Below are positions 25,818-43,492 of a stretch of DNA of 64,000 bases, in pieces. Both the position numbers and the translations under genes were made by a program. The first letter of the stretch is position 1. Each line of letters opens with the position of its first letter. The stretch is from an uncultured Gammaproteobacteria bacterium (GTDB taxonomy: Bacteria; Patescibacteriota; Microgenomatia; UBA8517): NCBI GenBank assembly GCA_964645605.1, contig CAZYCE010000001.1, forward strand, positions 64,063-128,062, written 5' to 3'. The notes under the pieces were generated by a model. That model had not been told where the DNA came from. It worked only from the letters and a program-made list of their open reading frames with translations, and did no database searches.

Positions 25818-26068
25818 CTTTCAACCGAACAGCTTCCTTCAGAGGAGATTTTGGACAATCACAATTTACTTTTTATTTAAACGACCGTCCTTGCTCATTT
25901 GCGAAATGTAATCTTTTATCCAGTTTGGTAATACCCTCGAGACCCAAACTCGATTAGCACTCTCGGGTGACAATTTTTTATTCAGACCAGTGTAAACTTT
26001 TCTGCTTACGATTTCGTTGAGATCGGTTTTTATATTTTCTACCCCCATTTTTGTTATTATGATATTTA

Positions 26069-27685
26069 TTATTTGGGATTAGTCCTATTGGGATTAGCCC
26101 TATTATTTACATAATCTTTAAACCATTGCGGAGCCTTTGAGGATTTGCCACTGATCGCTTCCGGATTTATCCTTTTATTTAAGTTTCTATAGAAATTCTG
26201 AGCGCCAACTTCTCCTCCATATTTTCTAATTGCCGCGATCTGAGGACCCATTGTTTGCCCATAGACCCCCTTAATGGTTCCTGTGGCTTCACCAATTGCA
26301 CTTCCATAGTCAAACGGTTTGCCGGAGAAGAATGATTGGACAATCTCGGCAGCTTTTGTGATCTGACTGAATATGAAAAAACTTACAAACACCCATATCA
26401 ATTGACCCCCATTATGCTCCGCATTGGTACCTACCCCAAATGGGGGATTCCATGTGTCGGAGCCAATCATGTTAACAACCGGCCTGAAAGGAGTGGAATA
26501 GGCTTCCCTTTCGGCTTCGATGGTCATACCTTGTTTCAGGAAGAAAAAAGAAAAGAAAATCATCACAACCATGACCGGGTATATAGCCAGGTAGGACGCA
26601 ATTCGTTTTAGCCAGCTTCCAAAACCGATTTTGGAAGACACCGCACCCATCATTATTTCAAGAGGTCCTGTTGCAATGGAAATCATAAGCATGGCGAAGT
26701 TTTTGATCATCACAAATATGATTTTTAGTGACCACCAGAGTATTGGAAAGATAGAAAAAACTGAAACAAGCAGAAGCAAAATACCAGCCCACCACATGTT
26801 TCCGCTGTTGACAATTGCAAGAAACGAATTCATTACAAAGTGAACCCAGTAAGTGTACATAAGACCAAACCCGTCAAATGTATAAAGAAACTCATCAAAT
26901 AATTTTGAAGGGGCAAGAGCGCTCAGTCCGCCGGTACTGATAATGGTTGAGATAAGTCCAATAACCAAGTACATCAAATCAATTAAAAATCCGGCGATAG
27001 CATAAGAAAAGGTGATCAGAACCATAGACACGATCAATTTCGGAAGGGCAGACTGGACAGTAATTACAGTTTGAGGGTTAATTTTTACTCTAAACATAAT
27101 CATAAAAGCGATGACAATGACGGCAACCACAAGGAGACTGAAACTCAAATTTCTAAATACTCTCCAAAGGCCAACCATGGATTGTCCTACGTTAAAACCA
27201 ATTCCATTATCGGCCGCTTTGACGCTTGAGACGGGTGAAAGTTTTTGGAATAAATTATTAAAGTATCCGACACCGGAAAGCGGGCTTTTAGAAACAGTTT
27301 CTAAATAGCTTGAAGCTAAACTTTGGTTGTCGTTTGCCGTGGCTTGGGAATTAACAATTTCATCAAATTTACCCAAACAATTGTCAAAATTTATACTGCC
27401 TCCGACCATACACAAAAATAAGTCCGGATTTCCCGGGAGAAGATTGAGAAGTGTTGACGGCAAACTATAAAGAATCCATTGAACTTGGGCTGCGGTATAG
27501 CGCTCTCCAAAAATTTCACTTGATGGAGAAACGGATTCGTCATAGACTTTTCCATACCAGTCAAGAAAATTCTGGTTGTACCATGTGTTTTGTTCGGCTT
27601 TAGCTTGGAAAAGGGTAGCGGATGAAAAAAGGAGAACAATACCGATAAATGTTGAAAAAACTATTTTTTTGAGCAGGGTAGACAT
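26069..27685 (-). CDS. Polytopic membrane protein (538 aa). N-terminal signal peptide and large extracytoplasmic loop followed by ≥6 TM helices. VirB6/TrbL-like channel candidate.
   Basis: Signal-like N-terminus (IVFSTFIGIVLLFSSATLFQAKA). Multiple long hydrophobic helices in the C-terminal two thirds. VirB6 assignment is by architecture and context only. Confidence 0.45.
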   Translation of the reverse strand: MSTLLKKIVFSTFIGIVLLFSSATLFQAKAEQNTWYNQNFLDWYGKVYDESVSPSSEIFGERYTAAQVQWILYSLPSTLLNLLPGNPDLFLCMVGGSINFDNCLGKFDEIVNSQATANDNQSLASSYLETVSKSPLSGVGYFNNLFQKLSPVSSVKAADNGIGFNVGQSMVGLWRVFRNLSFSLLVVAVIVIAFMIMFRVKINPQTVITVQSALPKLIVSMVLITFSYAIAGFLIDLMYLVIGLISTIISTGGLSALAPSKLFDEFLYTFDGFGLMYTYWVHFVMNSFLAIVNSGNMWWAGILLLLVSVFSIFPILWWSLKIIFVMIKNFAMLMISIATGPLEIMMGAVSSKIGFGSWLKRIASYLAIYPVMVVMIFFSFFFLKQGMTIEAEREAYSTPFRPVVNMIGSDTWNPPFGVGTNAEHNGGQLIWVFVSFFIFSQITKAAEIVQSFFSGKPFDYGSAIGEATGTIKGVYGQTMGPQIAAIRKYGGEVGAQNFYRNLNKRINPEAISGKSSKAPQWFKDYVNNRANPNRTNPK

Positions 27686-27725
27686 ATATTTATTCTAGAC
27701 TGTTATATTAAAAAATCAAAGAGTC

Positions 27726-28334
27726 CTAAAGTAAACCATAGGTTCTTATCCAAAGGTCAGCTGTTTCTTGAATGAAAGTTCTTTGACCAAAGATAAAATA
27801 AATATTATGTATATCCACCCCTTTTGTGGCAAGCAATTTTTTAATCTGTTCAAACGAATCAATAAAAGCGACAACATTTGGATTGGTTTCTTTCGATGGA
27901 TCCTGGTTCCTAAAATTAATTCCATAAATTTCTACATGGACAAGATACTCCGGGTCGCTTGGAATGGTATAGACATTTAAGGTGGTTAACATTCCGTTAG
28001 AGTTTTTAAAACTTTCAATGTAAATTGGCAGGCTGCCTTTTAACTTATTTTTGCTTTCAATGGCGGTAATTACTTTGTCGGATGTCATATCAACCTGCCC
28101 CGCGATATTTTCGGGAGGTTTTGAGTATGAAGGTTCTACAAAATTACCGGAAACAGGAGTTGCGGAAATTGATATTGAATTTTGTTCAGCTTGACCGGCG
28201 GGCTGTGCTGAAGATTGGAGGGCTTCCCCGCTCTGATTTTTGGTGGATAATTGAATAAAGACGAGTATCAAAATTGCCACAATGGATAGAATTATGTAAA
28301 TTTTGTATTTTGAAATAAAATTTCTCATTCTCAA
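27726..28334 (-). CDS. Membrane-anchored hypothetical protein (202 aa).
   Basis: Single N-terminal TM (IYIILSIVAILILVFIQL) followed by an extracytoplasmic domain. Confidence 0.35.
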   Translation of the reverse strand: MRMRNFISKYKIYIILSIVAILILVFIQLSTKNQSGEALQSSAQPAGQAEQNSISISATPVSGNFVEPSYSKPPENIAGQVDMTSDKVITAIESKNKLKGSLPIYIESFKNSNGMLTTLNVYTIPSDPEYLVHVEIYGINFRNQDPSKETNPNVVAFIDSFEQIKKLLATKGVDIHNIYFIFGQRTFIQETADLWIRTYGLL

Positions 28335-30920
28335 TTAATGATTATATAACTCTGTTGCCACAGTTAAGGCCCCCGGTCTACCGTCGATTGGGTAAGGCAG
28401 GGGACATTTTGTGTAATCCCAGCAATAGATGATATTCATCTTAAGGTGGCTGTAGTCTATCCAGTTTACGGTATAATTATGGTCAATGCCCTCCGGCGGA
28501 GGGCAGGGACCAGAGTAAATTGAGTTAGTATCAGAACAATTACTGTTACCAGGCCCATTGTACCGCATAAGCGCTGTAATAAGCTCATTCCAAGAGTCAA
28601 TGGTACCTCCAACGGCACCCGCAAGCTGCCATCCTGCCGTTTCCGCCGATTCCAAAAGACAACCCTGTATTGGACCTCCGTTCTGAAGAGACTGGTTGGG
28701 GTTATTGCTTCCTTCGCGAAAATGGATTCCGGCCAAGACTTCGCAGGGAACACCGGTTCTTCTCTCAGCCTCTTTATAAACAGCTAAAAGATCGGAAGAA
28801 AGATAGGGAAAAATATATGTTTCAAAATAATTTTTACCCGATGCGGTTGTTTTTGGCGGCGGATTATATTTACTAAACACGCTTCCGTCGCACGTTCCGG
28901 GTGGAACTTCTTCATTAGAGCACTCCGTCGGTAGGCCTATTTCTGGAAGAGATGAAGAATTAGCAAAAGCGATAGGATCTCCATACCCTTTTGGCCTTAA
29001 GGCGGTTTGAATGCCCTTTAAAAAATACTCGGAAATTCCACCCAGGTGGGGAAGCTTTAAATCTGTATTGGCGCTTGATACGTCTATATTGGTTCCAGAA
29101 TAGGTAACGTTTATGGACCCGGGAATGTCCATTATTTGCCCGACGCTTCCTTCTGTGTTGGTTTTGGGAAAAATTCTTTTAAATATTGACATGGGGCCTG
29201 CCACCAAACGTGACCATATATTATCAACCAAAGGAATTTTGGTTTGTGTGGACATTCCGATATAAATATCTTTAGTACATTTTTGGATTTGAGAAACACA
29301 ATTATTGCCGCAAGTTGTTCCGGTTGGACAATCTTGTTGACCAAATGTGTTGGCACAAATCCAACCGGTTGGGGCACACCTTCCGCCAACAGCGTAACAA
29401 GCATTAGAAGTAGATGTGGCAGGAGATGCTTCGTATTCGCAGGTAAACTGGGCGGTATAACCTAAATTTCCTCTTATCTGACTGGCAAAAAGGTCGTCTC
29501 CGGGGTTTGAACGGACTTCTACCGAAGAGCAGGCTGAGCTTTTTGCCACTTGAGTAGGATCCCCCAATTTTCCTTCGCTCGTTGCAACAAAAGTGCTTTG
29601 GAGTAGACCACCAAGTTGATCTACCTCTCCCATGTGAGATAGGTATATTTTAGATGTTGATGAAGATTCAAAAGTTATGTCTTTAACAACGGTTCCGTTC
29701 GAGGAAGGAATTAAGGTCAAAGATTGATTGTCCATCTTAATTTCTCCCTCGACATCCTCCGTGGTGGAAAGAGGCACATAGGGAAAAAGATCCGAATACA
29801 TATTGGGAATTATTAAGTTCTCAACACATACAAGATGTTTCACTAAGGGGACAATTACACAAGTTTTACCGTGCCATTCATAATAAGCCTTGCGGTAAAG
29901 AAGTTCGCTGGCAAAAGGCTTCGCTGGCTCCCCTGGATCTGCTGTGCCATCATCCCATGGAAGTGGGGGGGTGGCCTTGTTCCATGCGGAAGATAAAGAT
30001 GTATCAATATTCCCTTGAATCATCTCCGTTACCATAGATTCGGGGAACAACTTAAGCAAACTTTCTAGGACAAATTTTATTCCGTCGGGGAAAGCGTTTG
30101 CTATAGATCTGGCCCAAGAGATCTTGTCGTCCCAGCCGTAAGCGTTACGATCAATTGATTCTGCTTTTAATCTAAAAATTTCGCCTTGCGTCTCAGCTCC
30201 ACCTCCTTTATAGCATTCAATTGGCTTAACGTATCCAACATTCAAGAGATTTCTGATTGGACCGCCGCGTGTGGCACAGGCAACAATTTGATTGTGATTT
30301 GTTTCTCTGGCATTTTCGATTGTCTTAATTCTTTGGGCGTTTAGAATGGCATCGGGCAGGAGTTTTTGCAGAGGTCCCGAAAGATTAACTGTACTATAGT
30401 CATCACTTTTTGAGCTGCCATATTCGGCTTGATTTATAACCCCATTTAAATACCAACTGGCATAGCTATTCATTTTTTCCTGATCACTAAGATTATCTGC
30501 CGCGTTTGTTGAATTCGTCACATCTTCGGTATTGCCCATAATTGGAAGTTCTGCACCGTTTAAATTAATACCAATAGGTTTATTAACCTCTACAGTGTAA
30601 TCACAATATATTTTGTTGCCGGTGGTTGTGCAGCTGTCGGTCTGGTCTCCCGGATATTGAACTTCGACAGTGTCTTTTATTGTTAGGTCGTTTCCGCAAA
30701 AGGTAGCCGTGTTTGTATCATATGTTACGCAAGGTCTTGCCCTGTATGGTCTTAAAGAGTTAAATTCAGGATTTATTACCTCGTTACAGCTGACTATAGC
30801 TGGTAGAGGAGTTTGTGCGCAGATATTCCTTGGGGATATGAGATTATAACCAAGAACCGAAAATACGAATAAACAAGAAATAAGTAAAGTACTTTTTCTC
30901 GGACAGTGCATAATAATCAC
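28335..30920 (-). CDS. Large (861 aa) secreted Cys-rich protein. Possible cell-wall hydrolase or adhesin associated with the secretion/pilus apparatus.
   Basis: N-terminal signal peptide (LLISCLFVFSVLGYNLISP). Many Cys residues in CxxC/CxC clusters. The C-terminal region (…GVPCEVLAGIHFREGSNNPNQ…) is globular. No confident family match from memory. Confidence 0.4.
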   Translation of the reverse strand: MIIMHCPRKSTLLISCLFVFSVLGYNLISPRNICAQTPLPAIVSCNEVINPEFNSLRPYRARPCVTYDTNTATFCGNDLTIKDTVEVQYPGDQTDSCTTTGNKIYCDYTVEVNKPIGINLNGAELPIMGNTEDVTNSTNAADNLSDQEKMNSYASWYLNGVINQAEYGSSKSDDYSTVNLSGPLQKLLPDAILNAQRIKTIENARETNHNQIVACATRGGPIRNLLNVGYVKPIECYKGGGAETQGEIFRLKAESIDRNAYGWDDKISWARSIANAFPDGIKFVLESLLKLFPESMVTEMIQGNIDTSLSSAWNKATPPLPWDDGTADPGEPAKPFASELLYRKAYYEWHGKTCVIVPLVKHLVCVENLIIPNMYSDLFPYVPLSTTEDVEGEIKMDNQSLTLIPSSNGTVVKDITFESSSTSKIYLSHMGEVDQLGGLLQSTFVATSEGKLGDPTQVAKSSACSSVEVRSNPGDDLFASQIRGNLGYTAQFTCEYEASPATSTSNACYAVGGRCAPTGWICANTFGQQDCPTGTTCGNNCVSQIQKCTKDIYIGMSTQTKIPLVDNIWSRLVAGPMSIFKRIFPKTNTEGSVGQIMDIPGSINVTYSGTNIDVSSANTDLKLPHLGGISEYFLKGIQTALRPKGYGDPIAFANSSSLPEIGLPTECSNEEVPPGTCDGSVFSKYNPPPKTTASGKNYFETYIFPYLSSDLLAVYKEAERRTGVPCEVLAGIHFREGSNNPNQSLQNGGPIQGCLLESAETAGWQLAGAVGGTIDSWNELITALMRYNGPGNSNCSDTNSIYSGPCPPPEGIDHNYTVNWIDYSHLKMNIIYCWDYTKCPLPYPIDGRPGALTVATELYNH

Positions 30921-30937: not shown

Positions 30938-31222
30938 TTATGGAGAAATCATTAGATTAAACTGTGTGACATCAACACCTGTAATGTTACTTATAATTAC
31001 AAGGATTATATAAGAAACCAAAATTACAATAAGGCCTATTACCGCGGAAGTAATTGTTTTTTTTGCTCCCTCTGCCGCTTTTGGATCGCCACCCGAAGTG
31101 ATAAACCCGAAACCTCCTATTAAAAGAAGGATGAAGAAAACTATTCCGGCAAGTCCTAATGCATAACCAATCACTCTTTGTAGGATACCGCCCAAATCAG
31201 ATATTTTTGCTACATCATCCAC
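30938..31222 (-). CDS. Pilin-like two-TM small protein (TrbC/VirB2-like, T4SS pilin family), paralog 8 of the tandem array.
   Basis: 94 aa. Helix, then loop ITSGGDPKAAEGAKKTITSAVIGLIVIL, then a second helix. The motif is shared with seven neighbouring genes. Confidence 0.55.
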   Translation of the reverse strand: MDDVAKISDLGGILQRVIGYALGLAGIVFFILLLIGGFGFITSGGDPKAAEGAKKTITSAVIGLIVILVSYIILVIISNITGVDVTQFNLMISP

Positions 31223-31260
31223 GAAAACATTCTAACCTAAACAATTATTTTGAGCAATTA

Positions 31261-31602
31261 TCAAAGATTAATAGTCGGGATCGCGAGGTTGAAGATGTCT
31301 ACGTGGAAGATAGTGTTTATAAGGGCAACTATGGCCCAAGCCGCAAAGACTATAACAAGGCCAACCAAAGCCGCCGTAATCTGATTCCTAGCAGCCTCTG
31401 TTTTGGCCTTATCACCGCCGGAGGCGATCCAGCGAATCCCACCGATAACCAAAATAAAGAAAAATATTATAGCGGCAACAATCACAACAAGCCTTATCCC
31501 TACAGAGATAATGCTTGGAATAGTTAAATTGCCCAATGCGCTAAACTGAGAATCGGAAGACGGTTGAAGGTTGATAGTGTCCTCCGCAAGTAATTTCAAC
31601 AT
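31261..31602 (-). CDS. Pilin-like two-TM small protein (TrbC/VirB2-like), paralog 7.
   Basis: 113 aa. IASGGDKAKTEAARNQITAALVGLVIVF motif between two hydrophobic helices. Confidence 0.55.
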   Translation of the reverse strand: MLKLLAEDTINLQPSSDSQFSALGNLTIPSIISVGIRLVVIVAAIIFFFILVIGGIRWIASGGDKAKTEAARNQITAALVGLVIVFAAWAIVALINTIFHVDIFNLAIPTINL

Positions 31603-31623
31603 ATTTATATTATATACGTATTA

Positions 31624-31983
31624 TTAAATAATTAGCTTACCGATGTCAATACTCAGAATGGAAACGTGGAAAATGTCTTGTATAAGTCCGATTATTGCAA
31701 AAACAGCAAAGAGAATAACAAGACCCACCAACGCGCTGGTAATCCTACTCCTTGCTTTTCCGACTGCCTCTTTATCTCCTCCTGAGGAAATCCACTGAAT
31801 TGCCCCCACCACTAAGTTGAAAAAGAAAACAATCGCACCGACTATCAAAATCAAGGTAACTGCCATCGGAAGAAATTTCTGAAGGAAGCCAATAGAGTTG
31901 GGGTCTTGTCCCAAGGTTGACGGAAGCACGGGGTTTACAATTGAACCCTGAGCCAAATTTTGAGCGATTAAATTATTTAACAT
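31624..31983 (-). CDS. Pilin-like two-TM small protein (TrbC/VirB2-like), paralog 6.
   Basis: 119 aa. ISSGGDKEAVGKARSRITSALVGLVILF motif. Confidence 0.55.
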   Translation of the reverse strand: MLNNLIAQNLAQGSIVNPVLPSTLGQDPNSIGFLQKFLPMAVTLILIVGAIVFFFNLVVGAIQWISSGGDKEAVGKARSRITSALVGLVILFAVFAIIGLIQDIFHVSILSIDIGKLII

Positions 31984-32357
31984 TATTGGCTGTTCGTGAT
32001 TACCCCGAAAAGTGCACCGATATTAAGAATATTTGGAATCCCGATAATTTTGCCTATTAAGTTGATTATAACCAGGGCCAAAATTACAACAATCAAACCG
32101 ATGGCCCCCGTTGTGATTTTTTTCCTGGCGCTTTCCAAGGCTTGCTTATCTCCTCCGGAACCAATGATACTTATCGCCCCGGTTATAAAAGTGAACACAA
32201 ACCAAATAATTGCAACAATTGTCATAACTCCGATTGCCATAGAAATTATTGAAGAAAGTTTTGAGACACCTTGCCCTTCTTCCGTTATGTTGCCAAGCGG
32301 ACCAAGACCTTTAAAGCCTCCCTCGGGTGCAATTGAAATGTCGGTTAGTAATCTCAT
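31983..32357 (-). CDS. Pilin-like two-TM small protein (TrbC/VirB2-like), paralog 5.
   Basis: 124 aa. IGSGGDKQALESARKKITTGAIGLIVVIL motif. The overlapping plus-strand ORF 31996-32376 is judged spurious. Confidence 0.55.
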   Translation of the reverse strand: MRLLTDISIAPEGGFKGLGPLGNITEEGQGVSKLSSIISMAIGVMTIVAIIWFVFTFITGAISIIGSGGDKQALESARKKITTGAIGLIVVILALVIINLIGKIIGIPNILNIGALFGVITNSQ

Positions 32358-32370
32358 GCTTTCAATTTCA

Positions 32371-32883
32371 TTATAAAGTCGGAATCGTCGGGTTGAGTAT
32401 AAAGTCCCACCTTCCGAATATCAACTGTCCGAAAATAGCTGCTAGAACAAATGCCGCCGCTGCAACCACAAGCCCGAGAGCCGTTTGCCAAATTTTGGCC
32501 CACGCACCGGCAACCTTTTTAGGGTCGTCTCCGGCAGAAAGAAAGGCATACCCGGCAAGAATAAAATTGAAAAGGGCATAGATGCCCGCCCCAATAATTA
32601 AAACCCAGATTATTCTTTGAATTAAATTCCCTATCCCAGTTCCCGGGTCTCCCGAAACTGCCACAGGGGGATTAATAGTTCCGAAAGGGTTATTGTTGGG
32701 CGCCGCATTCGAACCCGGTTTACAACAGTGTGCCACACAACGTTCCCCCATGCCGCACTCGGTATCAAGGGTGCATTCAGGAGGATCACACGCAGCAATT
32801 ACACTATTGACATGTAATATCAAACCGATAAAAACCCCTAAGGAAATGTAGAATATTTTCCTAATTTGCATTTTTTTAGACAA
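32371..32883 (-). CDS. Pilin-like module fused to an N-terminal secreted Cys-rich domain (170 aa), paralog 4.
   Basis: Signal peptide, then CDPPECTLDTECGMGERCVAHCCKPG, then C-terminal LSAGDDPKKVAGAWAKIWQTALGLVVAAAAFVL two-helix pilin module. Confidence 0.5.
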   Translation of the reverse strand: MSKKMQIRKIFYISLGVFIGLILHVNSVIAACDPPECTLDTECGMGERCVAHCCKPGSNAAPNNNPFGTINPPVAVSGDPGTGIGNLIQRIIWVLIIGAGIYALFNFILAGYAFLSAGDDPKKVAGAWAKIWQTALGLVVAAAAFVLAAIFGQLIFGRWDFILNPTIPTL

Positions 32884-33196
32884 CCCCAGGAATCCCCAGC
32901 AATTGTCCTATTAATTTTACTATCCAATAGGATGCAAATACAATAACAAAACCAACTACGGCTGATGTAATGGTTTTTTTGGACTTCTCTGCACTTTGAG
33001 GATCGTTTTTGCCGGCCGAACTAATGAGTCCAATTCCTCCCAGAATAAAAAAGAAAAGAAGGGTAATTCCTGCAAGGACAAAGGCGGCATTTAAGAAAAC
33101 TGAAACAATACTGCTTATTCCGGTGGGGCTTTGTAAAGCGCCGGGTCCCGAATTGCCAAAAAAAGCTTCGCCTATAGAAAAAGCAAGTTCATTCAC
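32876..33196 (-). CDS. Pilin-like two-TM small protein (TrbC/VirB2-like), paralog 3.
   Basis: 106 aa. ISSAGKNDPQSAEKSKKTITSAVVGFVIVF motif. Confidence 0.55.
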   Translation of the reverse strand: MNELAFSIGEAFFGNSGPGALQSPTGISSIVSVFLNAAFVLAGITLLFFFILGGIGLISSAGKNDPQSAEKSKKTITSAVVGFVIVFASYWIVKLIGQLLGIPGVV

Positions 33197-33242
33197 AACA
33201 CCATTTTAGTATAGAGTTTTACTTAAGACAAGTGAGTGGATT

Positions 33243-33575
33243 TTATTTTACACCGAAGATTTGACCAAAAAGTGTGGATTCGAGGCCAAAAAGCTGTCCG
33301 AATAGCTGGACAATTGTGAAAGCCACTATTACGATAACAAATCCTATTACCGCATTAGTAATTTTTGCTTGTGCTGCCTGAGCAGCTTTAGGATCCCCTC
33401 TGGAAAGCATAAATTGGAAACCTCCAATAATGAGGTAAATTAAAAGAGCGATTCCGGCAGCACCGAAAATATAGGGCAATACAGTTCCGATTATTTCCCC
33501 AAGAGTAGTATTTGTTCCAAAATTTGCATTTGGGAATGCTCCTTTTTGTATGGATTCAAGATTTTGCGCAAGCAT
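33243..33575 (-). CDS. Pilin-like two-TM small protein (TrbC/VirB2-like), paralog 2.
   Basis: 110 aa. LSRGDPKAAQAAQAKITNAVIGFVIVIV motif. Confidence 0.55.
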   Translation of the reverse strand: MLAQNLESIQKGAFPNANFGTNTTLGEIIGTVLPYIFGAAGIALLIYLIIGGFQFMLSRGDPKAAQAAQAKITNAVIGFVIVIVAFTIVQLFGQLFGLESTLFGQIFGVK

Positions 33576-33577
33576 TT

Positions 33578-34423
33578 TTATTTATTGAAACCAAATTGGT
33601 CTAATCCAAGTATATCAACTCCGATAAAGTTAAGTATAAATATTGAGAATATAAGAAGTATTAACCCTGCAATCGCTGATGTTAAGAGTTCTTGTCCGGC
33701 CTTCATTCGTTCCGGATTGCCGGATGCCGTCATAATCATAAATCCTGCATAAAGCATCAAAGCGAATGCAATACCACTCCCGATACCGACGGCCCACTTG
33801 AGAAGTGCGCCTAAAAAATCATTTGTGGAGCCAAAAACAGGGAAACAGCCAATTGCAGTTTTTATTCCTTGTCCGGAAGTGCCACATGTAATATCGAGTT
33901 TATTTTTTAAATCTACACAAATACCCTCGTCGTTTAGCGAGGAACCGGCACAACAAGTTTGACCAGGACCTGGCTTACCTTTCGATACACAGTTGTGATA
34001 TGGGTCAGTGCCATTCTTTATACACATCAGACCTGATCCGTAATTAAACTCAAAAGTTCCGGTACAACACGGTTTACTTGATGTTGGAACACCACCCTCT
34101 TTTGTGCATCCTCCGGAATTTGATTCTATGCAGTCACAAGTTACAGAAAGATCATAAAGAGAACTACCAGACACGTGACATACGGGTGTAAAGTCTTCGG
34201 AAGGGCAATTGTCAGAGATAACTATTGGATCCGGGTTGGTAAAGCTTCGAATAGTACAAACACATTCAGGGTCCTCGGCAAGTATGGGTTTCGGAGTTAA
34301 GAACAAAAAACTAAAAACAAAAGCACAAACAATAGAAACGGCCTGCAAATATTTTCTCATTCCATTTATTCTAAAACAAAAGGGGTAAAAGTAAAAGAAC
34401 AGTGCTGGTATAATAAATGGCAA
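33578..34423 (-). CDS. Secreted Cys-rich extracellular domain (about 20 Cys) fused to a C-terminal pilin-like two-helix module (281 aa). Candidate pilus tip/adhesin subunit. First gene of the pilin array.
   Basis: N-terminal signal. CVCTIRSF…CPSEDFTPVCHV…CDCIESNSGGCTKEGG…CCTG…CIKNG…CVSKG…CCAG…CVD…CGTSGQG. C-terminus …GSGIAFALMLYAGFMIMTASGNPERMKAGQELLTSAIAGLILLIFSIFIL matches the array motif. Confidence 0.5.
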   Translation of the reverse strand: MPFIIPALFFYFYPFCFRINGMRKYLQAVSIVCAFVFSFLFLTPKPILAEDPECVCTIRSFTNPDPIVISDNCPSEDFTPVCHVSGSSLYDLSVTCDCIESNSGGCTKEGGVPTSSKPCCTGTFEFNYGSGLMCIKNGTDPYHNCVSKGKPGPGQTCCAGSSLNDEGICVDLKNKLDITCGTSGQGIKTAIGCFPVFGSTNDFLGALLKWAVGIGSGIAFALMLYAGFMIMTASGNPERMKAGQELLTSAIAGLILLIFSIFILNFIGVDILGLDQFGFNK

Positions 34424-38870: not shown

Positions 38871-39305
38871 ATGAATATCGCGAATAAAAGAGCCAGGTTT
38901 GAATATGAATTAACGGGCGAGGGGGTCGAAGCCGGAATCTCTCTTTTGGGGGCTGAGGCCAAATCGGTACGGGAGGGAAGGGTCGATATAAGTCAAGCCG
39001 CAGTCAGGATTTTGAACGACGAAATGTATCTGATCAATGCCAATATTCCCGTTTCTGGCATGCAAAAATACAGTTCGACCAGAATAAGAAAACTCCTTCT
39101 CCATAGGGGGGAAATTTTGTCGCTTATTACAAAAATGAAGCAAAAAAGATTGCAAATTGTGCCTATCAGGGTGTATAATAAAGGCCGCTTAATTAAGATT
39201 TACCTTGAGCTTGGTAAGAGCAAGCATAGGTTTGAGAAAAAGGAGGCAATTAAGCGCCACGACATAAACCGAGACATCGAGAAGGAATTTAAAGGTTCGA
39301 TTTAA
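38871..39305 (+). CDS. smpB: SsrA-binding protein SmpB.
   Basis: MNIANKRARFEY…GAEAKSVREGRVDISQA…LLLHRGEI motifs. Followed immediately by tmRNA. Confidence 0.85.
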   Translation: MNIANKRARFEYELTGEGVEAGISLLGAEAKSVREGRVDISQAAVRILNDEMYLINANIPVSGMQKYSSTRIRKLLLHRGEILSLITKMKQKRLQIVPIRVYNKGRLIKIYLELGKSKHRFEKKEAIKRHDINRDIEKEFKGSI

Positions 39306-39308
39306 GTC

Positions 39309-39675
39309 GGGGACGATCGGTCTCGACGGAATGCTCTTTACAATACTGCAAGCCAAGTTTGATCGACACTTGTCAAAAGAGATCAAAAAATAAAAGCTAG
39401 GAATTCATTCCAAGCCCAACCTAACTACGCAGTAGCGTACGCTTAAGTTGCATCCTTAGATTTGATTCTCGGTTGAATCAAAAGGGTGTAAACCAATCCG
39501 AGATGCTTTTTAAAACTTAATGATTTAGAGTTTTGAAATTAAGCCTAAATAAATCTTACGTTCAGCAGCTGTAAGTTTGCTTAAACTGAACGAAAATTTA
39601 AAAAATTTACTAAGCTTGTAGAGGTTTTGTAGAAAGTTTTTTCGGACGCGGGTTCGATTCCCGCCGTCTCCACAG
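39309..39675 (+). ncRNA. ssrA: Transfer-messenger RNA (tmRNA, ssrA). Predicted tag reading frame ends …AQPNYAVAYA-stop.
   Basis: 5' GGGGACGATCGGTCTCGACGG matches the tmRNA acceptor/D-analog consensus. 3' GGACGCGGGTTCGATTCCCGCCGTCTCCA is the tRNA-like T-arm/acceptor. The internal ORF GCC CAA CCT AAC TAC GCA GTA GCG TAC GCT TAA (39414-39446) resembles ANDENYALAA-type tags. Location just after smpB. Confidence 0.8.
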
Positions 39676-39676
39676 A

Positions 39677-39706
39677 CAAAAAACCGCTATGCCGGCGGGT
39701 TTTTTG
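39677..39706 (+). terminator. Rho-independent terminator after tmRNA (A-tract / stem / T-tract, potentially bidirectional).
   Basis: AAAAAACCGCtatgccGGCGGGTTTTTT. Confidence 0.5.
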
Positions 39707-39720
39707 GTGGAAAAATATGA

Positions 39721-40395
39721 TTGATGGGCATTCTTGACCTTGTTTTTCCGAAAACGTGTCTTGGGTGCGGACGCGGCGGAAGATACTTATGCCAAGCCTG
39801 TATCGATAAAACTCCGAAGGCTGATGCAATCCGCCCGTATTGTAAACACCCCTCCATTGACTGAACTACACACGTAAATTGTCAAAAGAAGTTCGGGATA
39901 GACGGCTTGACCACAATCTGGGGTTATGAGGGAGTTATCAGGAAGGCGATACTGTCGTTAAAATATAAATATGCCACGGAAGTGGCGAATGAAATTTCTG
40001 ATTACTTAATTATTTCACTGGTGAGCAGGGTGATGCCTTCTGTTCAATGTTTAGCTCCGGTTCCGATCCATTGGCATAGACAAAATACAAGGGGATTTAA
40101 TCAATCGGCTGAAATCGGTAAGCTCGTAGTAGCCTCAATAGGGTGTAAATTTACTCAGGATTTATTGATAAAAACCGTTTCAACGGCTTCTCAAACCGAA
40201 CTGGGCAGAAAAGACCGCCGCCGAATTTACGGGGTGTTTTTTCCGTTAATTCCATATATAAATCATCTTTGGTAAATCTGAAATCCGTTATTATTTTTGA
40301 TGATGTTTTACTATCGGTTCAACACTAATGGAGGTGGAAAAAGTTTTAAAAAGAGGGGGCGTGGAAAAAGTTTGGGGACTGACGATTGCAAGATA
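39721..40395 (+). pseudogene. comFC: comFC (ComF family phosphoribosyltransferase-like competence protein) disrupted by one in-frame TGA and two frameshifts.
   Basis: Frame 1, 39721-39861: LMGILDLVFPKTCLGCG…YLCQACID (ComF zinc-finger N-terminus), then TGA at 39862-39864. Same frame resumes at 39907-40275: IWGYEGVIRKAILSLKYKY…LAPVPIHWHRQNTRGFNQSAEI… -1 frame, ~40224-40325: NLRGVF…KSVIIFDDVL. Third frame to 40395: TIGSTLMEVEKVLKRGGVEKVWGLTIAR-stop. The shifts coincide with a CCGCCGCCG repeat and a T-homopolymer. Confidence 0.6.
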
Positions 40396-40401
40396 ACCGT
40401 G

Positions 40402-40483
40402 CGGTAGGTACAGGGGTCGAACCTGTTAGAGCTTGCGCTCACGAGTTTTCAAGACTCGCGCGTTACCGTCCCGCCCACCTACC
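40402..40483 (-). tRNA. tRNA-Ser (anticodon TGA, reads UCA/UCN), long variable arm.
   Basis: Minus-strand sequence GGTAGGTGG…CGAGT-CTTGAAA-ACTCG…long extra arm…ACAGGTTCGACCCCTGT-ACCTACC-G. Anticodon loop CT-TGA-AA. Confidence 0.8.
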
Positions 40484-40489
40484 ACTGAG

Positions 40490-40575
40490 CGGAGGGGGTG
40501 AGATTTGAACTCACGCGAGCCTTGCGGCTCAGAGGTTTAGCGAACCTCCGCAATGGACCGCTATGCGACCCCTCC
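40490..40575 (-). tRNA. tRNA-Ser (anticodon GCT, reads AGY), long variable arm. Only 6 nt from the preceding tRNA-Ser.
   Basis: Minus-strand GGAGGGGTCGCATAGCGGTCCATTGCG-GAGGT-TCGCTAA-ACCTC-TGAGCCGCAAGGCTCGC-GTGAGTTCAAATCTCAC-CCCCTCC-G. Anticodon GCT. Confidence 0.75.
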
Positions 40576-41562
40576 ATATTTGTATTTATTTAGCCTCTGA
40601 TTACTACTACCAACAATATTGAGATATTTTTCTATCTCATGGCTATTATACAGCCAAACCTTCTTATTCACTACGTTCTTGATAATTTTCGGGTGAAACT
40701 TTAATTCTTTGAGTGTTTCGTAAACAAAGGTCAAAAGAGGAACGGAATAGTTGGTGAAGTTGGCTTTTGGGTATATGTATATTTTCCCATTTACTTTATA
40801 CCTGTGGATGAAGATTCCACCATCAGTATCCATCAAACCACGCAAACAGCGAATTTTATATTTTTGGTTCGATTTTATCCAATCTGGTACGTCCACTTGG
40901 TTTTTAACCTTATTACCCGGGACTAATCCAAGTTTTGTTAGAAGTTTGGTTAAGTTGGCTCCGTTATAATAAATTTCCAATGCATTGGCATTATTTCTTT
41001 TCCTGACTTTGGGCTCGTGTCCAAACAAAGATTTGCATAGTTTTACTACATAGTGCGAATAATCCAAATCCTTAATACTGTTTAATGTTATGCGTATTTG
41101 TAATCTTCCCATGCTCCCATCACCAAGCATAATCCCCATGAACTCAGCAAGGTTCGAAGAGCGTTTCGGTGTGTAAAATGTAGCGATTGGTGATATTGAC
41201 CCTGATTTTCTGAGGATTTCTAGAGTTTTTAATCCTCCTTTTTGTCTACCTTCTTTTGTACCTGGATTTCCATATTTTTGTTTGTAGGCAATCCCACCTC
41301 GTTTTCCAATCCGCGATCTATTCGTTTTCCATCTGTTTTCCAATACCCCAACCTTTTCAGGTAAAATGACATTAAACTTGCTGCCTAATATAAGTACGGC
41401 ATTTTTTGAAATTGACATCTTTTCATTTTTCCAATCAGTAAAACTTCTAGGGGAAACACTTACCAAATTAGCCAATTTATTGGTGCCTAAACCGCTTTTT
41501 TGAATCACTGTTTTGAGGAATATCTTTTGATGGTTGGGCAAGAATTTTAGGTGATTTTCCAT
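40561..41562 (-). CDS. Free-standing LAGLIDADG-family homing endonuclease (two LAGLIDADG-like motifs) with an N-terminal HTH-like region. Its 3' end overlaps tRNA-Ser(GCT) by ~15 nt.
   Basis: FMGIMLGDGSMGRLQIRITL and LRGLMDTDGGIFIH motifs are separated by ~100 aa, as in double-motif LAGLIDADG enzymes. The TAG stop lies inside the tRNA 5' end. Confidence 0.65.
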   Translation of the reverse strand: MENHLKFLPNHQKIFLKTVIQKSGLGTNKLANLVSVSPRSFTDWKNEKMSISKNAVLILGSKFNVILPEKVGVLENRWKTNRSRIGKRGGIAYKQKYGNPGTKEGRQKGGLKTLEILRKSGSISPIATFYTPKRSSNLAEFMGIMLGDGSMGRLQIRITLNSIKDLDYSHYVVKLCKSLFGHEPKVRKRNNANALEIYYNGANLTKLLTKLGLVPGNKVKNQVDVPDWIKSNQKYKIRCLRGLMDTDGGIFIHRYKVNGKIYIYPKANFTNYSVPLLTFVYETLKELKFHPKIIKNVVNKKVWLYNSHEIEKYLNIVGSSNQRLNKYKYGGVA

Positions 41563-41623
41563 ATCCGCTAGACGACACCTCCATGATATACTTTTCCAGA
41601 TATAAAATGTATACTACGCATGT

Positions 41624-42160
41624 ATGGAATCTGCCAATAGCACATTAAATGTTGAGCCACAGGCGGTGGTTGTCAGGCGTGAACCTGAACGCGATTTGGT
41701 TACCTGGACGGCGCCAGCGCGGCCATTTAAAAGGTACGGCAGAAAGTTTTATGTAACTATTTTTTCATTTGTAGGAATAATCAGCATAATTCTTTTTATA
41801 GCCGAAGGTGCCATACCGGTAGTGCTCTTAGTTTCACTTATCTTTTTGTTTTATGTTCTTTCTACGGTTTCACCGGAGAATATTGAGTATAAAATAACCA
41901 ATAAGGGAGTCAAAATCGCAGGCAAGGAAACACCCTGGCAAAATATAATCAGGTTTTGTTTTTTGTCAAAAACAGGAGGCGAAGTTTTGGTTTTTGATGC
42001 GGCAACGTTTCCCGGAAGAATAGAGCTTGTCATAAATCCCGAGGACAAAGATAGATTGAAAAAAGAAATTTCTGCATACACTCCTTATGAAGAAATTAAG
42101 CCTTCTTTTTTGGATAAGATTGTGGACTGGGTTGTTAAAAAGCTGCCGGAGAGTGAGTAG
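41624..42160 (+). CDS. Membrane hypothetical protein (178 aa, two TM helices).
   Basis: Hydrophobic hairpin FYVTIFSFVGIISIILFIAEGAIPVVLLVSLIFLFYVL. Confidence 0.4.
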   Translation: MESANSTLNVEPQAVVVRREPERDLVTWTAPARPFKRYGRKFYVTIFSFVGIISIILFIAEGAIPVVLLVSLIFLFYVLSTVSPENIEYKITNKGVKIAGKETPWQNIIRFCFLSKTGGEVLVFDAATFPGRIELVINPEDKDRLKKEISAYTPYEEIKPSFLDKIVDWVVKKLPESE

Positions 42161-42182
42161 GCACAACTCCGAATAAGCATCT

Positions 42183-42255
42183 GCACCCGTAGCTTAACGG
42201 ATAGAGTAGGAGCTTGCGGAGCTCTTGGTCCCAGTCCGATTCTGGGCGGGTGCAC
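42183..42255 (+). tRNA. tRNA-like gene, best read as tRNA-Arg (anticodon GCG). The T-loop (TCCGATT) is non-canonical.
   Basis: GCACCCG-TA-GCTT-AACGGATA-GAGT-A-GGAGC-TTGCGGA-GCTCT-TGGT-CCCAG-TCCGATT-CTGGG-CGGGTGC-A-CC. Seven-bp acceptor, anticodon loop TT-GCG-GA. Confidence 0.45.
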
Positions 42256-42259
42256 CTAA

Positions 42260-42341
42260 GGAGGATGGGCAGGACGGTAATGCGTTGGTTTCGAAAACCA
42301 ATTCTCGTAAGGGATAGCAGGTTCGACTCCTGCATCCTCCG
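42260..42341 (+). tRNA. tRNA-Ser (anticodon CGA, reads UCG), long variable arm.
   Basis: GGAGGAT…TTGGT-TTCGAAA-ACCAA…GCAGGTTCGACTCCTGC-ATCCTCC-G. Anticodon loop TT-CGA-AA. Confidence 0.75.
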
Positions 42342-42461
42342 CTCGTCGGAACTAAACATTGCTGGTCGTTTTTCAAAACTGAGAGTTTTGAAAAAGATTG
42401 CAAGTTTGTTCCTTCTCTCGGAATTGTTGTACAATTTCGGTTGGAAACATAGATACAAGAG

Positions 42462-42908
42462 ATGGATACAAAAATAAATCAACAAATATTTATAGGAGGC
42501 GCAGTGGTTTTCAAAGATAACCGTGGCAAGCGCCAGTATTTGCTGGTTAAAACGAAAATAGATAGTAACTGGGAAATTCCCAAAGTAACGGTGAGAAGGG
42601 GAGAATCCTCTGTGCGTGCCGTGATTAGACTTACGGGAGAGCAGGGGGGGATTACGGCCAGAATTTTGGAAGAAGCGGGTAGATATTCGGTAACCACGAT
42701 AATAAACGGCAATACCATTCCCCAGAAATATTATTATTACTTGATGCTTCAAAAAGGAGGCCCTGGAGAAATGATCGGATTTCAAGATTACAAATGGATG
42801 GAATTTCCAAATGCCTTGAAAAAGATTGATTCCGAGAAAGAGAAAGAGATGCTCAAAAGTGCAAAAAAGGTATTGAAGGAGTGGGAATCCACACATAGGG
42901 TTAAATAA
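42462..42908 (+). CDS. Nudix hydrolase family protein.
   Basis: Nudix-box-like RGESSVRAVIRLTGEQGGI (GX5EX7REUXEEXGU pattern). Confidence 0.55.
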   Translation: MDTKINQQIFIGGAVVFKDNRGKRQYLLVKTKIDSNWEIPKVTVRRGESSVRAVIRLTGEQGGITARILEEAGRYSVTTIINGNTIPQKYYYYLMLQKGGPGEMIGFQDYKWMEFPNALKKIDSEKEKEMLKSAKKVLKEWESTHRVK

Positions 42909-42913
42909 AGCCA

Positions 42914-43390
42914 ATGTTGCGCGAGTTTTCTTCTGGCGGAGTAGTCTACAAGAAAGAAAAAGGAGAGGTTCTGTGGGTAGTAAGGATGACTGCTGCCAGT
43001 AAACTTTTTCCCAAAACACACTGGATGCTTCCAAAGGGTTGGTTGGATGATGCGGGAGATGGTGTCCCCGGGCCAATGGCCTCGGGCACGTTAAAGGCTG
43101 ACGAAAAAACGCTTCAGGCAACTGCGGTCCGTGAAGTTGTGGAAGAAACGGGAGTTAAGGCTGAAATTATTAAAAAAATTGGGACGCTTAAATATGTTTA
43201 TACCCATCCTGAAAGGGGTAAAACTTTAAAATTTGTCACTTACTTCCTAATGGAGTGGAAATCCGACCTACCAGGAGGTTTTGACGGAGAAACCTCAGAA
43301 ATTGCCTGGCTTCCGTATGGGGAAGCTTATAAAAGACTTTCTTTTGGTAAAGAGAAGGAAGTGCTGAAAAAAGCAAACGCTCTTCTTTGA
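42914..43390 (+). CDS. Nudix hydrolase family protein (second, tandem).
   Basis: Nudix box …EKTLQATAVREVVEETGV…. Confidence 0.6.
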   Translation: MLREFSSGGVVYKKEKGEVLWVVRMTAASKLFPKTHWMLPKGWLDDAGDGVPGPMASGTLKADEKTLQATAVREVVEETGVKAEIIKKIGTLKYVYTHPERGKTLKFVTYFLMEWKSDLPGGFDGETSEIAWLPYGEAYKRLSFGKEKEVLKKANALL

Positions 43391-43407
43391 TATAATACAA
43401 GTTCAAT

Positions 43408-43492
43408 GGAGGAGTCGCCTAGTGGCCTATGGCACGGGTTTGGAAAACCCGGACCCGAAAGGGTCTCGTGAGTTCGAATCTCACCTCCTCCG
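43408..43492 (+). tRNA. tRNA-Ser (anticodon GGA, reads UCC/UCU), long variable arm.
   Basis: GGAGGAGTCGCCTAGTGGCCTATGGCA-CGGGT-TTGGAAA-ACCCG-GACCCGAAAGGGTCTC-GTGAGTTCGAATCTCAC-CTCCTCC-G. Confidence 0.8.

Follow-up and report, generated by a model that had tools for sequence, protein, structure and literature searches.

Tandem arrays of VirB2-like pilin genes (PF18895) have already been published for Patescibacteria (Quiñonero-Coronel et al. 2025, PMC12102498; Wang et al. 2023, PMC10633639). In the accessible parts of these reports, the arrays are chromosomal, lie close to dnaA and near a gene for a VirB4-type ATPase, comprise 2-11 genes, and are abundant in Microgenomatia. They are presented there as short, divergent paralogues possibly involved in antigenic or host variation, and the T4SS and its array were essential in Southlakia epibionticum, the one species tested (PMC10633639, PMC12102498). 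No PrgB-type adhesins were detected in the Patescibacteria survey (PMC12102498), and reviews speak of only "potential" pilus formation by patescibacterial PF18895 proteins.

The array of eight genes studied here lies within the published size range. Like the published arrays, it is a chromosomal PF18895 tandem array close to dnaA, with a VirB4-type ATPase gene nearby in the window, by which we mean the whole 64-kb stretch of DNA that was analysed. In contrast, the parts of the array literature cited above describe neither a fusion of a pilin with a signal peptide and a Cys-rich ectodomain nor, unlike what was found for the eight positions of this array, a fixed position with a hypervariable cassette among conserved orthogroups. 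A sequence-only reading had singled out two of the eight genes as encoding pilin modules fused to Cys-rich extracellular domains and proposed them as candidate tip adhesins.

Results

The two genes, encoding subunits 1 and 4, belong to a minus-strand operon of eight pilin paralogues. Beyond subunit 1, the rest of the array extends from position 30938 to 33575 on the minus strand, a span that includes subunit 4, and matches to PF18895 and NF045849, some of them below threshold, were obtained in all eight array genes. Subunits 2 (33243-33575), 3 (32876-33196), 5 (31983-32357), 6 (31624-31983), 7 (31261-31602), and 8 (30938-31222), all encoded on the minus strand, contain no Cys, lack an N-terminal signal peptide, and consist of two hydrophobic helices each. 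The inter-helix loops carry 2-4 Lys/Arg residues in all eight subunits. Operon spacing was tight and gave no clue to major versus minor stoichiometry.

The left-hand neighbor of the array is a divergent gene with a SpoIID domain (PF08486; 34417-36102, plus strand), found at the same position in 51 of 55 related loci. In 55 species-level genomes, the genes keep the order SpoIID, pilins 1 to 8, large Cys-rich protein; the genome titles, where they name a lineage, give Woesebacteria, Microgenomates, or Patescibacteria; in 55 genomes, subunit 1 is the first gene after SpoIID. The array is orthologous position by position with those of loci L001 and L003 and with 55 genomes, and pilin identity is 55-85% between species versus 24-52% between paralogues. 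Judged by these comparisons, the eight positions of the array are occupied by subunits that are not equivalent and were fixed anciently, which argues against simple antigenic-variation readings of the whole array.

The rest of the T4SS locus (15646-28334, mixed strands) was delineated by Pfam matches (PF12666, PF19044/PF12846, and PF01551) and hydropathy. It encodes a 202-aa protein with a single transmembrane segment (27726-28334), a polytopic 538-aa protein that is VirB6-like by inference only (26069-27685), a 930-aa protein (23025-25817, plus strand), a PrgI/VirB3-like protein (21981-23048), a VirB4-type ATPase (19430-21295), an M23-peptidase protein (16683-19427), and a 343-aa protein (15646-16677). 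Downstream of the array, at a distance of 9-18 kb, the same strand carries the genes for the ATPase, the PrgI/VirB3-like protein, and the M23 hydrolase. PADLOC returned nothing for those locus proteins without an assigned family, and no gene for a Dsb or VKOR oxidoreductase was found within the 64-kb window.

The longest frame of subunit 1 in the ORF list encodes 281 aa (33578-34423, minus strand) from a TTG at 34423. Since this TTG overlaps the start of the divergent SpoIID gene at 34417 and the aligned homologues begin with M-K/R-K, the true start is probably the ATG at 34360, with the TTG lying ∼21 codons too far upstream. The resulting gene (33578-34360, minus strand) encodes 260 aa, has 435 homologues, and matches PF18895 (T4SS_pilin) over residues 202-267 with 32.6 bits, above the gathering threshold of 26.6. 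In the AlphaFold2 (AF2) model (mean pLDDT of 79), a helix for the signal peptide precedes a beta-rich ectodomain, which is followed by a helical hairpin.

From the N to the C terminus, subunit 1 consists of a signal peptide, a variable Cys-rich ectodomain, an invariant Cys loop, and a two-helix pilin module. The predicted Sec signal peptide (34277-34360; residues 1-28, MRKYLQAV…PILA↓EDP, with the arrow marking cleavage) has a positive n-region, a hydrophobic core, and an I-L-A cleavage motif that can be read directly from the sequence; it aligns with the signal peptides of homologues and is modeled as a helix over residues 3-19. The ectodomain (33887-34276, residues 29-158, 14 Cys) is modeled as beta-rich (mean pLDDT of 75) and contains a module A with the pattern CxC…C…C…CxC and a module B formed by the tandem pair C-x12-CC-x13-C / C-x11-CC-x10-C. 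Directly before helix 1, the alignment revealed a probable disulfide loop, C159…GIxTAIGC172 (33827-33886), in which C159, T168, A169, G171, and C172 were invariant in 40 sequences. This loop defines the subunit-1 orthogroup and is found even in its minimal, 2-Cys members; all members carry both the predicted signal peptide and the loop. The pilin module itself (33626-33826) is a hairpin of two AF2 helices (residues 179-211 and 216-245) with an invariant loop, NPERxKAGQE, including invariant R218 and K220.

Subunit 4 is encoded by positions 32371-32871 on the minus strand (166 aa from the ATG at 32871); the longest frame in the ORF list, 170 aa (32371-32883), uses an alternative TTG start at 32883. 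A predicted signal peptide (32794-32871) is followed, right after an A-x-A type site (VIA↓AC), by a 6-Cys module (32710-32793, minus strand; ACDPPECTLDTECGMGERCVAHCCKPGS) with exactly six Cys in the pattern C-x4-C-x5-C-x5-C-x3-CC. The more general form C-x(2,4)-C-x5-C-x5-C-x3-CC is common to subunit 4, proteins P0123 and P0172, and the orthologue in loci L001/L007. The sequence IAAC resembles a lipobox; a lipoprotein signal was rejected because the corresponding sites of three homologues (VQA↓GC, IKA↓GC, and IRA↓AC) suit signal peptidase I and not a lipobox. Against PF18895, subunit 4 scored 19.7 bits (E = 9e-4), below the 26.6 cutoff, and we place it in the wider pilin family on the grounds that it can be aligned to the seven remaining pilins and is a member of a conserved pilin orthogroup. 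Proteins of this orthogroup are usually ∼115 aa long and have neither a signal peptide nor Cys: of 120 matches, 116 contained no Cys, and the 6-Cys module was present in only 3. The subunit-4 fusion is thus rare (∼2%; 1 of 47 species genomes).

Both ORFs are therefore real and lie on the minus strand as given in the ORF list, with intact frames and hundreds of homologues of the same architecture, and both proteins carry a predicted signal peptide, in line with the earlier reading. Their pilin modules are of the same two-helix type as claimed, but they are not the same module: the two are paralogues with 25% identity over 85 aa. Similarly, the count of 6 Cys for the smaller protein was correct, whereas "about 20" for the larger was too high; its 281-aa ORF contains 18, one before the likely start, one in the signal peptide, and 16 in the mature protein. 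That the fusion is unusual holds in comparison with classical VirB2 and for the rare subunit-4 fusion, but not for subunit 1 of this lineage, which carries it in most species (33 of 54).

Against a mean background of 0.74% Cys in the ORFs of the window, the probability of at least 16 Cys in 144 aa (subunit 1) is 2e-14, and that of at least 6 in 27 aa (subunit 4) is 4e-8. The number of mature Cys was even in 96 of 97 signal-peptide-bearing homologues (p = 1e-27), which points to disulfides, and the commonest counts of extra Cys among homologues were 6 and 12. Together with the predicted signal peptides and the recurring architecture, this even number bears out the earlier view of Cys-rich exported ectodomains on a pilin-type two-helix scaffold. 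An assignment of the Cys clusters to cytoplasmic metal sites was rejected, given the predicted signal peptide ahead of the Cys region, the even Cys numbers, the presence of only 2 His in the 144 aa of subunit 1, and the lack of a match to any Pfam or metal-binding family. Along with the intact frames and the hundreds of homologues, these observations dismiss the idea that the long ORFs are annotation artefacts due to missed stops or that the Cys clusters are metal sites, the only point in its favor being the improbable TTG start of the 281-aa gene.

The search for EGF-, defensin-, or knottin-like folds that had been suggested yielded no more than a sub-threshold resemblance to inhibitor cystine knot (ICK) toxins. 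Searched at E up to 1, Pfam gave no family for the ectodomain of subunit 1 or for the B units within it, and no EGF, defensin, hydrophobin, or other Cys-rich Pfam domain reached threshold in either Cys-rich protein; for subunit 4, the matches were sub-threshold only (AtDEF-like, 18 bits versus 25; Dumpy DPY, 15 bits versus 27). In Foldseek, the subunit-1 ectodomain had no significant match (E of 0.37 or worse), the top neighbors being DkTx (E = 0.4-0.9), protoxin-1 (TM of 0.69), and J-atracotoxin (TM of 0.74). A knottin would have six Cys in a C-C-CC-C-C framework, a knotted connectivity, and a significant fold match, whereas the repeat unit here is a 4-Cys C-CC-C. The pattern C-CC-C-C-CC-C of module B also resembles, superficially, the 8-Cys signature of hydrophobins; this candidate was dismissed because no Pfam or fold match was found and because module B is a C-CC-C element duplicated internally, one half of which close homologues lack.

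Homologous fusions recur, with the same architecture in hundreds of proteins, and the Cys pattern of the subunit-1 ectodomain is kept in 13 close homologues, among which unit B2 is either present or missing as a block. A homologue search with only the ectodomain as query retrieved nothing, its known relatives included, probably owing to a filter or word-index effect on so Cys-rich a sequence. In contrast to the pilin-1 modules, whose median pairwise identity was 75% (120 cluster representatives), the ectodomains attached to them fell into 32 unrelated clusters, and even when pilin modules were at least 95% identical, only 35% of pairs had a detectable ectodomain in common. The ectodomain is absent in 21 of 54 species (39%) and therefore unneeded for core function; the largest comprises 417 aa with 32 Cys. 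Within one ectodomain type, the module is nearly unchanged (e.g., P0018, P0020, and P0021), indicating change by replacement and not by point hypermutation. When the rest of the 64-kb window was scanned for repeats of the DNA that encodes the ectodomain and for silent cassettes of it, only chance matches of up to 21 nt turned up; these 64 kb thus give no hint of a donor for cassette conversion or of the DGR type. A Cys module and a signal peptide were gained together in several orthogroups normally without a signal peptide, namely, subunit 4 (window and L007), subunit 2 (L044), and subunit 6/7 (L043). A cassette-like ectodomain that is hypervariable, joined to so conserved a scaffold, is what one would expect of a determinant of recognition or adhesion.

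The gene following the array (28335-30920, minus strand) encodes a large, secreted Cys-rich protein of 861 aa, recognized by its 29 Cys and N-terminal hydrophobic segment; a PDB sequence search with it found nothing meaningful. In 44 of 55 loci, the array is followed by a homologue of this protein, whose Cys number is never below 5 and reaches 52. Residues 490-549 of the 861-aa protein match the ectodomains of P0045, P0037, and P0055. Conversely, subunit-1 ectodomain modules recur in the N-terminal parts of the large Cys-rich proteins of other genomes (57% identity over 60 aa, E = 1e-19), and the B1 unit of subunit 1 from the window does so as well (47% identity over 49 aa, E = 1e-9). By these matches, subunit-1 ectodomains and the large secreted protein draw on one pool of Cys-rich modules.

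Discussion

For the gene structure, export signals, disulfide-type Cys parity, scaffold conservation, module hypervariability and shuffling, and synteny reported above, we favor, with modest confidence, an explanation in which subunits 1 and 4 are part of a fixed eight-member VirB2-like (PF18895) set in a chromosomal T4SS of a Woesebacteria/Microgenomates-type Patescibacterium, and the ectodomain is a swappable recognition or adhesion cassette. The Cys-rich domains are most likely outward-facing recognition/adhesion domains on a pilin scaffold. The Sec signal peptide would export the N-terminal region of subunits 1 and 4, which would then fold extracellularly as small beta-rich modules stabilized by 8 disulfides in subunit 1 and by 3 in subunit 4; the helical hairpin would remain membrane bound with its positively charged loop inside. 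In some species, Cys pairs occur in the N-terminal tails of subunit 8 and in the C-terminal tails of subunits 4 and 5, which fits both termini being outside the cell. In VirB2, the inter-helix loop bears positive charge and faces the lumen (bioRxiv 10.1101/2022.09.25.509369). Should the subunits form a conjugative-type filament, their loop would line its lumen, the N terminus and ectodomain would point outward, and the subunits could be placed at its tip or along its shaft. As an optional, exchangeable cassette from a pool that also decorates the large secreted protein after the array, the ectodomain most likely serves to recognize a surface or to attach to it, the target probably being the host or a partner cell.

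The larger domain, which is swapped between species like a cassette, is a candidate determinant of what the cell attaches to. An always-first subunit with an exchangeable, exported, disulfide-rich cassette on a very conserved scaffold makes it a concrete one, and should it determine specificity, it would offer a concrete candidate for how ultra-small Patescibacteria recognize and hold their hosts. More tentatively, subunit 1 may be a scaffold that displays disulfide-rich mini-domains from a library shuffled horizontally; this library, shared with the adjacent large secreted protein, would set the host or partner specificity of an epibiont. Such an arrangement might represent, on a monoderm conjugative-type pilus, a bacterial counterpart of phage receptor-binding-protein cassettes, a parallel we draw with equal reserve.

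The variable ectodomain could also be a coat. If subunit 1 were the major shaft pilin, turnover of its exposed part would reflect escape from phage, predators, or antibody-like recognition and not target binding, by analogy with flagellin D2/D3 or the type IV pilin variable region. Subunit 1 does join the most conserved helices with a hypervariable exposed part; it stands first in the operon, is the only subunit in which a predicted signal peptide is universal, like classical VirB2, and can dispense with the ectodomain, as in 21 of 54 species. However, domains of 130-390 aa may be sterically hard to fit on all subunits of a tightly packed VirB2-type helix, variation proceeds by replacement of whole modules that are conserved within a type, and the occurrence of the same modules on a second, non-pilin protein suits binding better than pure camouflage. 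We consider such a coat unlikely.

It is improbable, in our judgment, that no filament forms at all, with the hairpin being a membrane anchor or T4SS channel subunit and the ectodomain a surface receptor, cell wall adhesin, or structural element. Eight non-redundant, fixed paralogues, more similar between species than among themselves, do look like parts of one complex, and pili from these systems are only called "potential" in reviews. A PDB search with the family profile of the pilin modules matched no pilin, leaving them without a sequence link to solved VirB2/TraA pilins, and no match to PF04956 was obtained at E up to 0.1. Against this stand the VirB2-type features of the locus (hairpin, short positive loop, and T4SS linkage) and weak Foldseek matches of the hairpin, among them the conjugation pilus of A. 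pernix (TM of 0.51, E = 4).

We give little credence to the modules being knottin- or defensin-type toxins or effectors carried on the secretion apparatus and delivered to a host cell or released onto it, even though a conserved carrier with swappable disulfide-rich modules resembles polymorphic toxins. The matches that suggest it, i.e., the ICK toxins as best structural neighbors and the AtDEF-like family in subunit 4, are below significance, and the latter spans the signal peptide. Moreover, the downstream neighbor is always the conserved pilin 2 and not a variable immunity gene, and the stretch between module and hairpin shows no evident processing site.

Comparison with known systems

With classical conjugative pilins (VirB2/TrbC/TraA), the subunits have in common the two-helix hairpin (AF2 helices 179-211/216-245 in subunit 1), the short positive loop (2-4 Lys/Arg in all subunits), the co-encoded VirB4 and T4SS locus, and, for subunit 1, a predicted signal peptide. 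They differ in having no detectable sequence similarity to these pilins and in their folded N-terminal domain. Signal-peptide-like N termini with A-x-A type sites, as read from the sequence itself and not by a dedicated predictor, are present in subunits 1 and 4 and absent in the other six, and the host is a monoderm-type cell, unlike classical hosts. All eight pilins also match the pilin-like protein family of the Mycoplasma ICE (Mbov_0395 family, NF045849), another hairpin protein of a monoderm T4SS; subunit 2 exceeded the cutoff (48.6 versus 40 bits), whereas the two Cys-rich genes remained below it (20.7 and 17.7 bits). This model has 80 positions, i.e., the size of a hairpin, and the ectodomains lie outside it.

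The proposed role in target cell contact is that of VirB5, the tip protein of Gram-negative systems, and of PrgB-type surface adhesins of Gram-positive systems, for which the ectodomain may stand in. There is no homology to either, and the binding domain is a separate protein in those systems, whereas the putative one here is fused to the hairpin. ICK mini-proteins such as DkTx, protoxin-1, and J-atracotoxin are alike in consisting of small, disulfide-stapled beta-hairpin units in tandem, but have 6-Cys C-C-CC-C-C units in place of 4-Cys C-CC-C. A conserved, polymerizing core with a surface-exposed region that is rapidly replaced is also known from flagellin, with its conserved D0/D1 and hypervariable D2/D3 domains, and from type IV pilins with a disulfide-bonded variable region. 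Subunit 1 appears to follow the same logic with unrelated folds and machineries, and here it is whole Cys modules, N-terminal to the core, that are replaced.

Results

Eight consecutive ORFs of 94 to 281 aa were called on the minus strand at 30938-34423. All of them matched Pfam family PF18895 "T4SS_pilin", five exceeding the gathering threshold, and all matched NCBIfam NF045849 ("Mbov_0395 family pilin-like conjugal transfer protein"). Within the array, cysteine was confined to a 281-aa ORF (subunit 1, 33578-34423; 32.6 bits against PF18895, above threshold) and a 170-aa ORF (subunit 4, 32371-32883; 19.7 bits, under threshold), the other six ORFs containing none. The sequence-only reading had given both genes the same pilin module and about 20 and 6 Cys, respectively. 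Each does encode a two-helix hairpin, but the modules (25% identity over 85 aa) are paralogues, and the count of 6 was correct for the smaller ORF, while the larger has 18: 1 before the likely start, 1 in the signal peptide, and 16 in the mature part. Because the TTG at 34423 that opens the longest version of subunit 1 overlaps the start of a divergent SpoIID gene (34417), and because aligned homologues begin with M-K/R-K followed by a hydrophobic core, we take the ATG at 34360 as its probable start, giving 260 aa; the NCBI copy starts four codons further downstream. For subunit 4, ATG 32871 (166 aa) was as compatible as the 170-aa start, and the signal peptide is intact with either.

In 260-aa numbering, subunit 1 consists of a predicted signal peptide (residues 1-28, …PILA before EDP), module A (6 Cys, CxC…C…C…CxC), module B (8 Cys, two tandem C-CC-C units termed B1 and B2), a short linker, a Cys…Cys loop (C159…GIKTAIGC172), and two long hydrophobic helices joined via the loop NPERMKAGQE. 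An AlphaFold2 model from a 40-sequence alignment (mean pLDDT, 79) predicted a signal-peptide helix, a beta-rich ectodomain (the exported Cys-rich region ahead of the hairpin), the Cys loop as a beta-hairpin, and helices spanning 179-211 and 216-245. Subunit 4 has a predicted signal peptide (…VIA before AC) and a 27-residue Cys module (C-x4-C-x5-C-x5-C-x3-CC), then a Pro/Asn-rich linker and the hairpin.

Against a mean of 0.74% Cys for the ORFs of the window, the probability of the observed Cys content arising by chance was 2e-14 for the subunit-1 ectodomain and 4e-8 for the subunit-4 module. Together with an 861-aa secreted protein encoded directly after the array, the two subunits were the three most Cys-rich proteins of the window. 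The mature protein had an even Cys count in 96 of 97 homologues with a recognizable signal peptide (p = 1e-27), with 6 (47 proteins) and 12 (16 proteins) being the most frequent ectodomain counts; in this respect, the cysteines behave as disulfides would. No Dsb or VKOR gene was found within the 64-kb window. A cytoplasmic metal-binding region, the alternative raised in the sequence-only reading, is very unlikely for an ectodomain that has 2 His in 144 residues and matched no Pfam family, metal-binding ones included. Some species have additional Cys pairs in a terminal tail, at the C-terminus of subunits 1, 4, or 5 or at the N-terminus of subunit 8, as expected if the two ends of the hairpin are extracellular. 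Lone pairs without a signal peptide, seen in the short N-tail of subunit 8 (genomes L015, L021, L022, L035, and L054) and in the C-tails of subunit 5 (L015 and L018) and subunit 4 (L057), suggest small disulfide loops on the extracellular side at either end.

Modeled alone, the ectodomain reached a mean pLDDT of 75, and Foldseek returned nothing from the PDB at an E value of 0.001 or better. Its best, nonsignificant neighbors were inhibitor-cystine-knot toxins: the double-knot toxin DkTx (E = 0.37-0.85) and, as single-unit matches of ∼35 columns each, protoxin-1 (TM, 0.69) and J-atracotoxin (TM, 0.74). For the hairpin, the Aeropyrum pernix conjugation pilus was among the weak matches (E = 4; TM, 0.51). 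We regard the toxin and pilus matches of these models as leads, not assignments; with neither a Pfam assignment nor a significant Foldseek match, membership in the EGF, defensin, knottin, or hydrophobin folds was unsupported.

Among 90%-identity clusters, 435 homologues of the 260-aa subunit 1 were detected; at 50% identity, the number of representative clusters reaching an E value of at most 1e-30 was 1172. The fusion recurs in related genomes: 33 of 54 species representatives carried a subunit-1 ectodomain with at least 4 Cys (4-9 in 15 species, 10 or more in 18), and 21 had no ectodomain, the minimal subunit 1 being ∼125 aa with 2 Cys. The largest ectodomain spanned 417 aa with 32 Cys, two divergent members being bigger still. 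Over the last ∼105 residues, pairwise identity among 120 representatives had a median of 75% and a minimum of 60%, with the Cys pair, T168, A169, G171, P216, R218, K220, and others invariant. The hypervariable stretch lies between the signal peptide and the Cys loop. Here, the 109 ectodomains that were 20 aa or longer fell into 32 unrelated BLAST clusters, and among pairs with pilin modules at least 95% identical, just 35% had detectably similar ectodomains. Because a module is near-constant inside one ectodomain type (e.g., homologues P0018, P0020, P0021, and P0027) and unit B2 is gained or missing as a whole block within the window's own subfamily, ectodomain change is, judged from these alignments, one of module gain, loss, and replacement, not point hypermutation. 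The rest of the window contained neither a repeat nor a donor copy of ectodomain DNA.

Members of the subunit-4 orthogroup (1363 matches) are typically ∼115 aa long and start with MNKLL…NPFG, without signal peptide or Cys. Among the best 120 matches, 116 had no Cys and just three had a signal peptide plus a 6-Cys module, one being a 99% copy of the window protein; by species genome, the fusion was present in 1 of 47 (L007). Subunit 4 is thus best described as a rare instance of a module added to a conserved scaffold, as in subunit 1. A signal peptide with 6-8 Cys was also gained independently in subunit 2 (L044, 6392-6922) and subunit 6/7 (L043, 7729-8247); subunit 6 of L057 (7717-8157) has 4 Cys in its N-tail and no evident signal peptide. 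Wherever the case is clear, gain of a folded Cys-rich N-terminal module came with gain of a signal peptide, presumably as export of a larger N-terminal domain requires.

The 861-aa protein (28335-30920) contains 29 Cys and had no match in Pfam, the PDB, or PADLOC. In 44 of 55 loci, a Cys-rich homologue (at least 5 and up to 52 Cys) follows the array. Residues 490-549 of the window protein are similar to subunit-1 (pilin-1) ectodomains from other genomes (47% over 47 aa with P0045). Conversely, 8 of 29 pilin-1 ectodomains matched the large Cys-rich protein encoded in another genome; none of these eight matched that of its own locus. All three alignments inspected (L007 and window versus L010; L016 versus L023) lay in the N-terminal vicinity of the large protein, with 57% identity over 60 aa (E = 1e-19) for the L016 ectodomain against L023 and 47% over 49 aa (E = 1e-9) for window unit B1 against L010. 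These cross-matches imply that two distinct scaffolds encoded in one operon draw their decoration from a single module pool.

The array heads a tight operon (intergenic gaps of 0-46 nt) that continues with the 861-aa protein, a 202-aa single-TM protein, and a polytopic 538-aa protein. Further genes on the same strand encode a PrgI/VirB3-like protein, a VirB4-type ATPase (TraG P-loop/AAA_10), and an M23-peptidase protein. Inside this otherwise minus-strand cluster, the plus strand carries a 930-aa ORF (23025-25817) that has one N-terminal hydrophobic segment and matched neither Pfam nor PADLOC. Just past the T4SS genes lie dnaA and dnaN (12952-15640), which places the T4SS close to the origin, and YidC and KhpB/Jag-like genes follow at 10694-11989. 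The remaining window genes are housekeeping. SmpB, tmRNA (39309-39673), four tRNA-Ser genes, and one tRNA-Arg gene occupy 38871-43493, where a LAGLIDADG-type ORF (40561-41562) overlaps tRNA-Ser(gct) with its 3' end; the L003 counterpart also has a LAGLIDADG gene. A 174-aa ORF (53245-53769) matched only the C-terminal half of the AI-2E transporter profile (183-326 of 327) and is possibly truncated or part of a split gene.

The order SpoIID (opposite strand), subunits 1-8, and large Cys-rich protein was found in L001, L003, and 55 species-representative genomes. Since same-position orthologues were 55-85% identical across genomes, versus 24-52% for paralogues inside the window, and their order is fixed, the eight subunits are on this comparison ancient, non-equivalent components, not a recently diversifying family. 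Homologue records with a lineage mostly named Candidatus Woesebacteria, Microgenomates, or Patescibacteria. Many related MAG records with loci syntenic to Woesebacteria/Microgenomates genomes (L005, L007, L014, and others) are titled "uncultured Gammaproteobacteria bacterium," probably a placeholder or mislabeled taxonomy.

Discussion

In a VirB2-type filament whose inter-helix loop is luminal, the subunit termini face the filament exterior. For subunit 1, the N-terminal region would be exported through the signal peptide, the hairpin would lie in the membrane N-out, loop-in, and C-out, and a VirB2-type filament, if one forms, would present the ectodomain on its outer face. In VirB2 itself, the loop is luminal and bears conserved positive charge (bioRxiv 10.1101/2022.09.25.509369); all eight window subunits have 2-4 Lys/Arg there. 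We moderately favor a role for the ectodomain as a binding domain that a pilin-type subunit displays at the surface. A role in recognition or adhesion would be expected because a conserved scaffold carries a freely replaceable surface part whose modules are reused on a second secreted protein. Such a domain may sit at the tip or a minor position, as the sequence-only reading proposed, or equally decorate the whole shaft. A replaceable surface part could also serve evasion rather than binding, and the ectodomain could be effector-like.

If the ectodomain is a binding domain, it would give a testable candidate for the determinant of host specificity among these organisms; a published survey found no PrgB-type adhesin in Patescibacteria (PMC12102498). 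N-terminal Cys-rich ectodomains are unmentioned in the examined parts of PMC12102498, PMC10633639, PMC11665869, and PMC12857230, and a full-text literature search for Cys-rich pilins of Patescibacteria returned no paper, its coverage being incomplete and the result absence of evidence only. VirB2-like arrays of 2-11 genes are described for Patescibacteria, Microgenomatia above all (PMC12102498), the pilin array is essential in S. epibionticum (PMC10633639), and array function is given as unknown in reviews (PMC11665869, PMC12857230). The window locus matches the chromosomal, origin-near T4SS described there for some Patescibacteria (PMC12102498). Its eight fixed orthogroups argue against the published idea that divergence within such arrays serves mainly antigenic or host variation.
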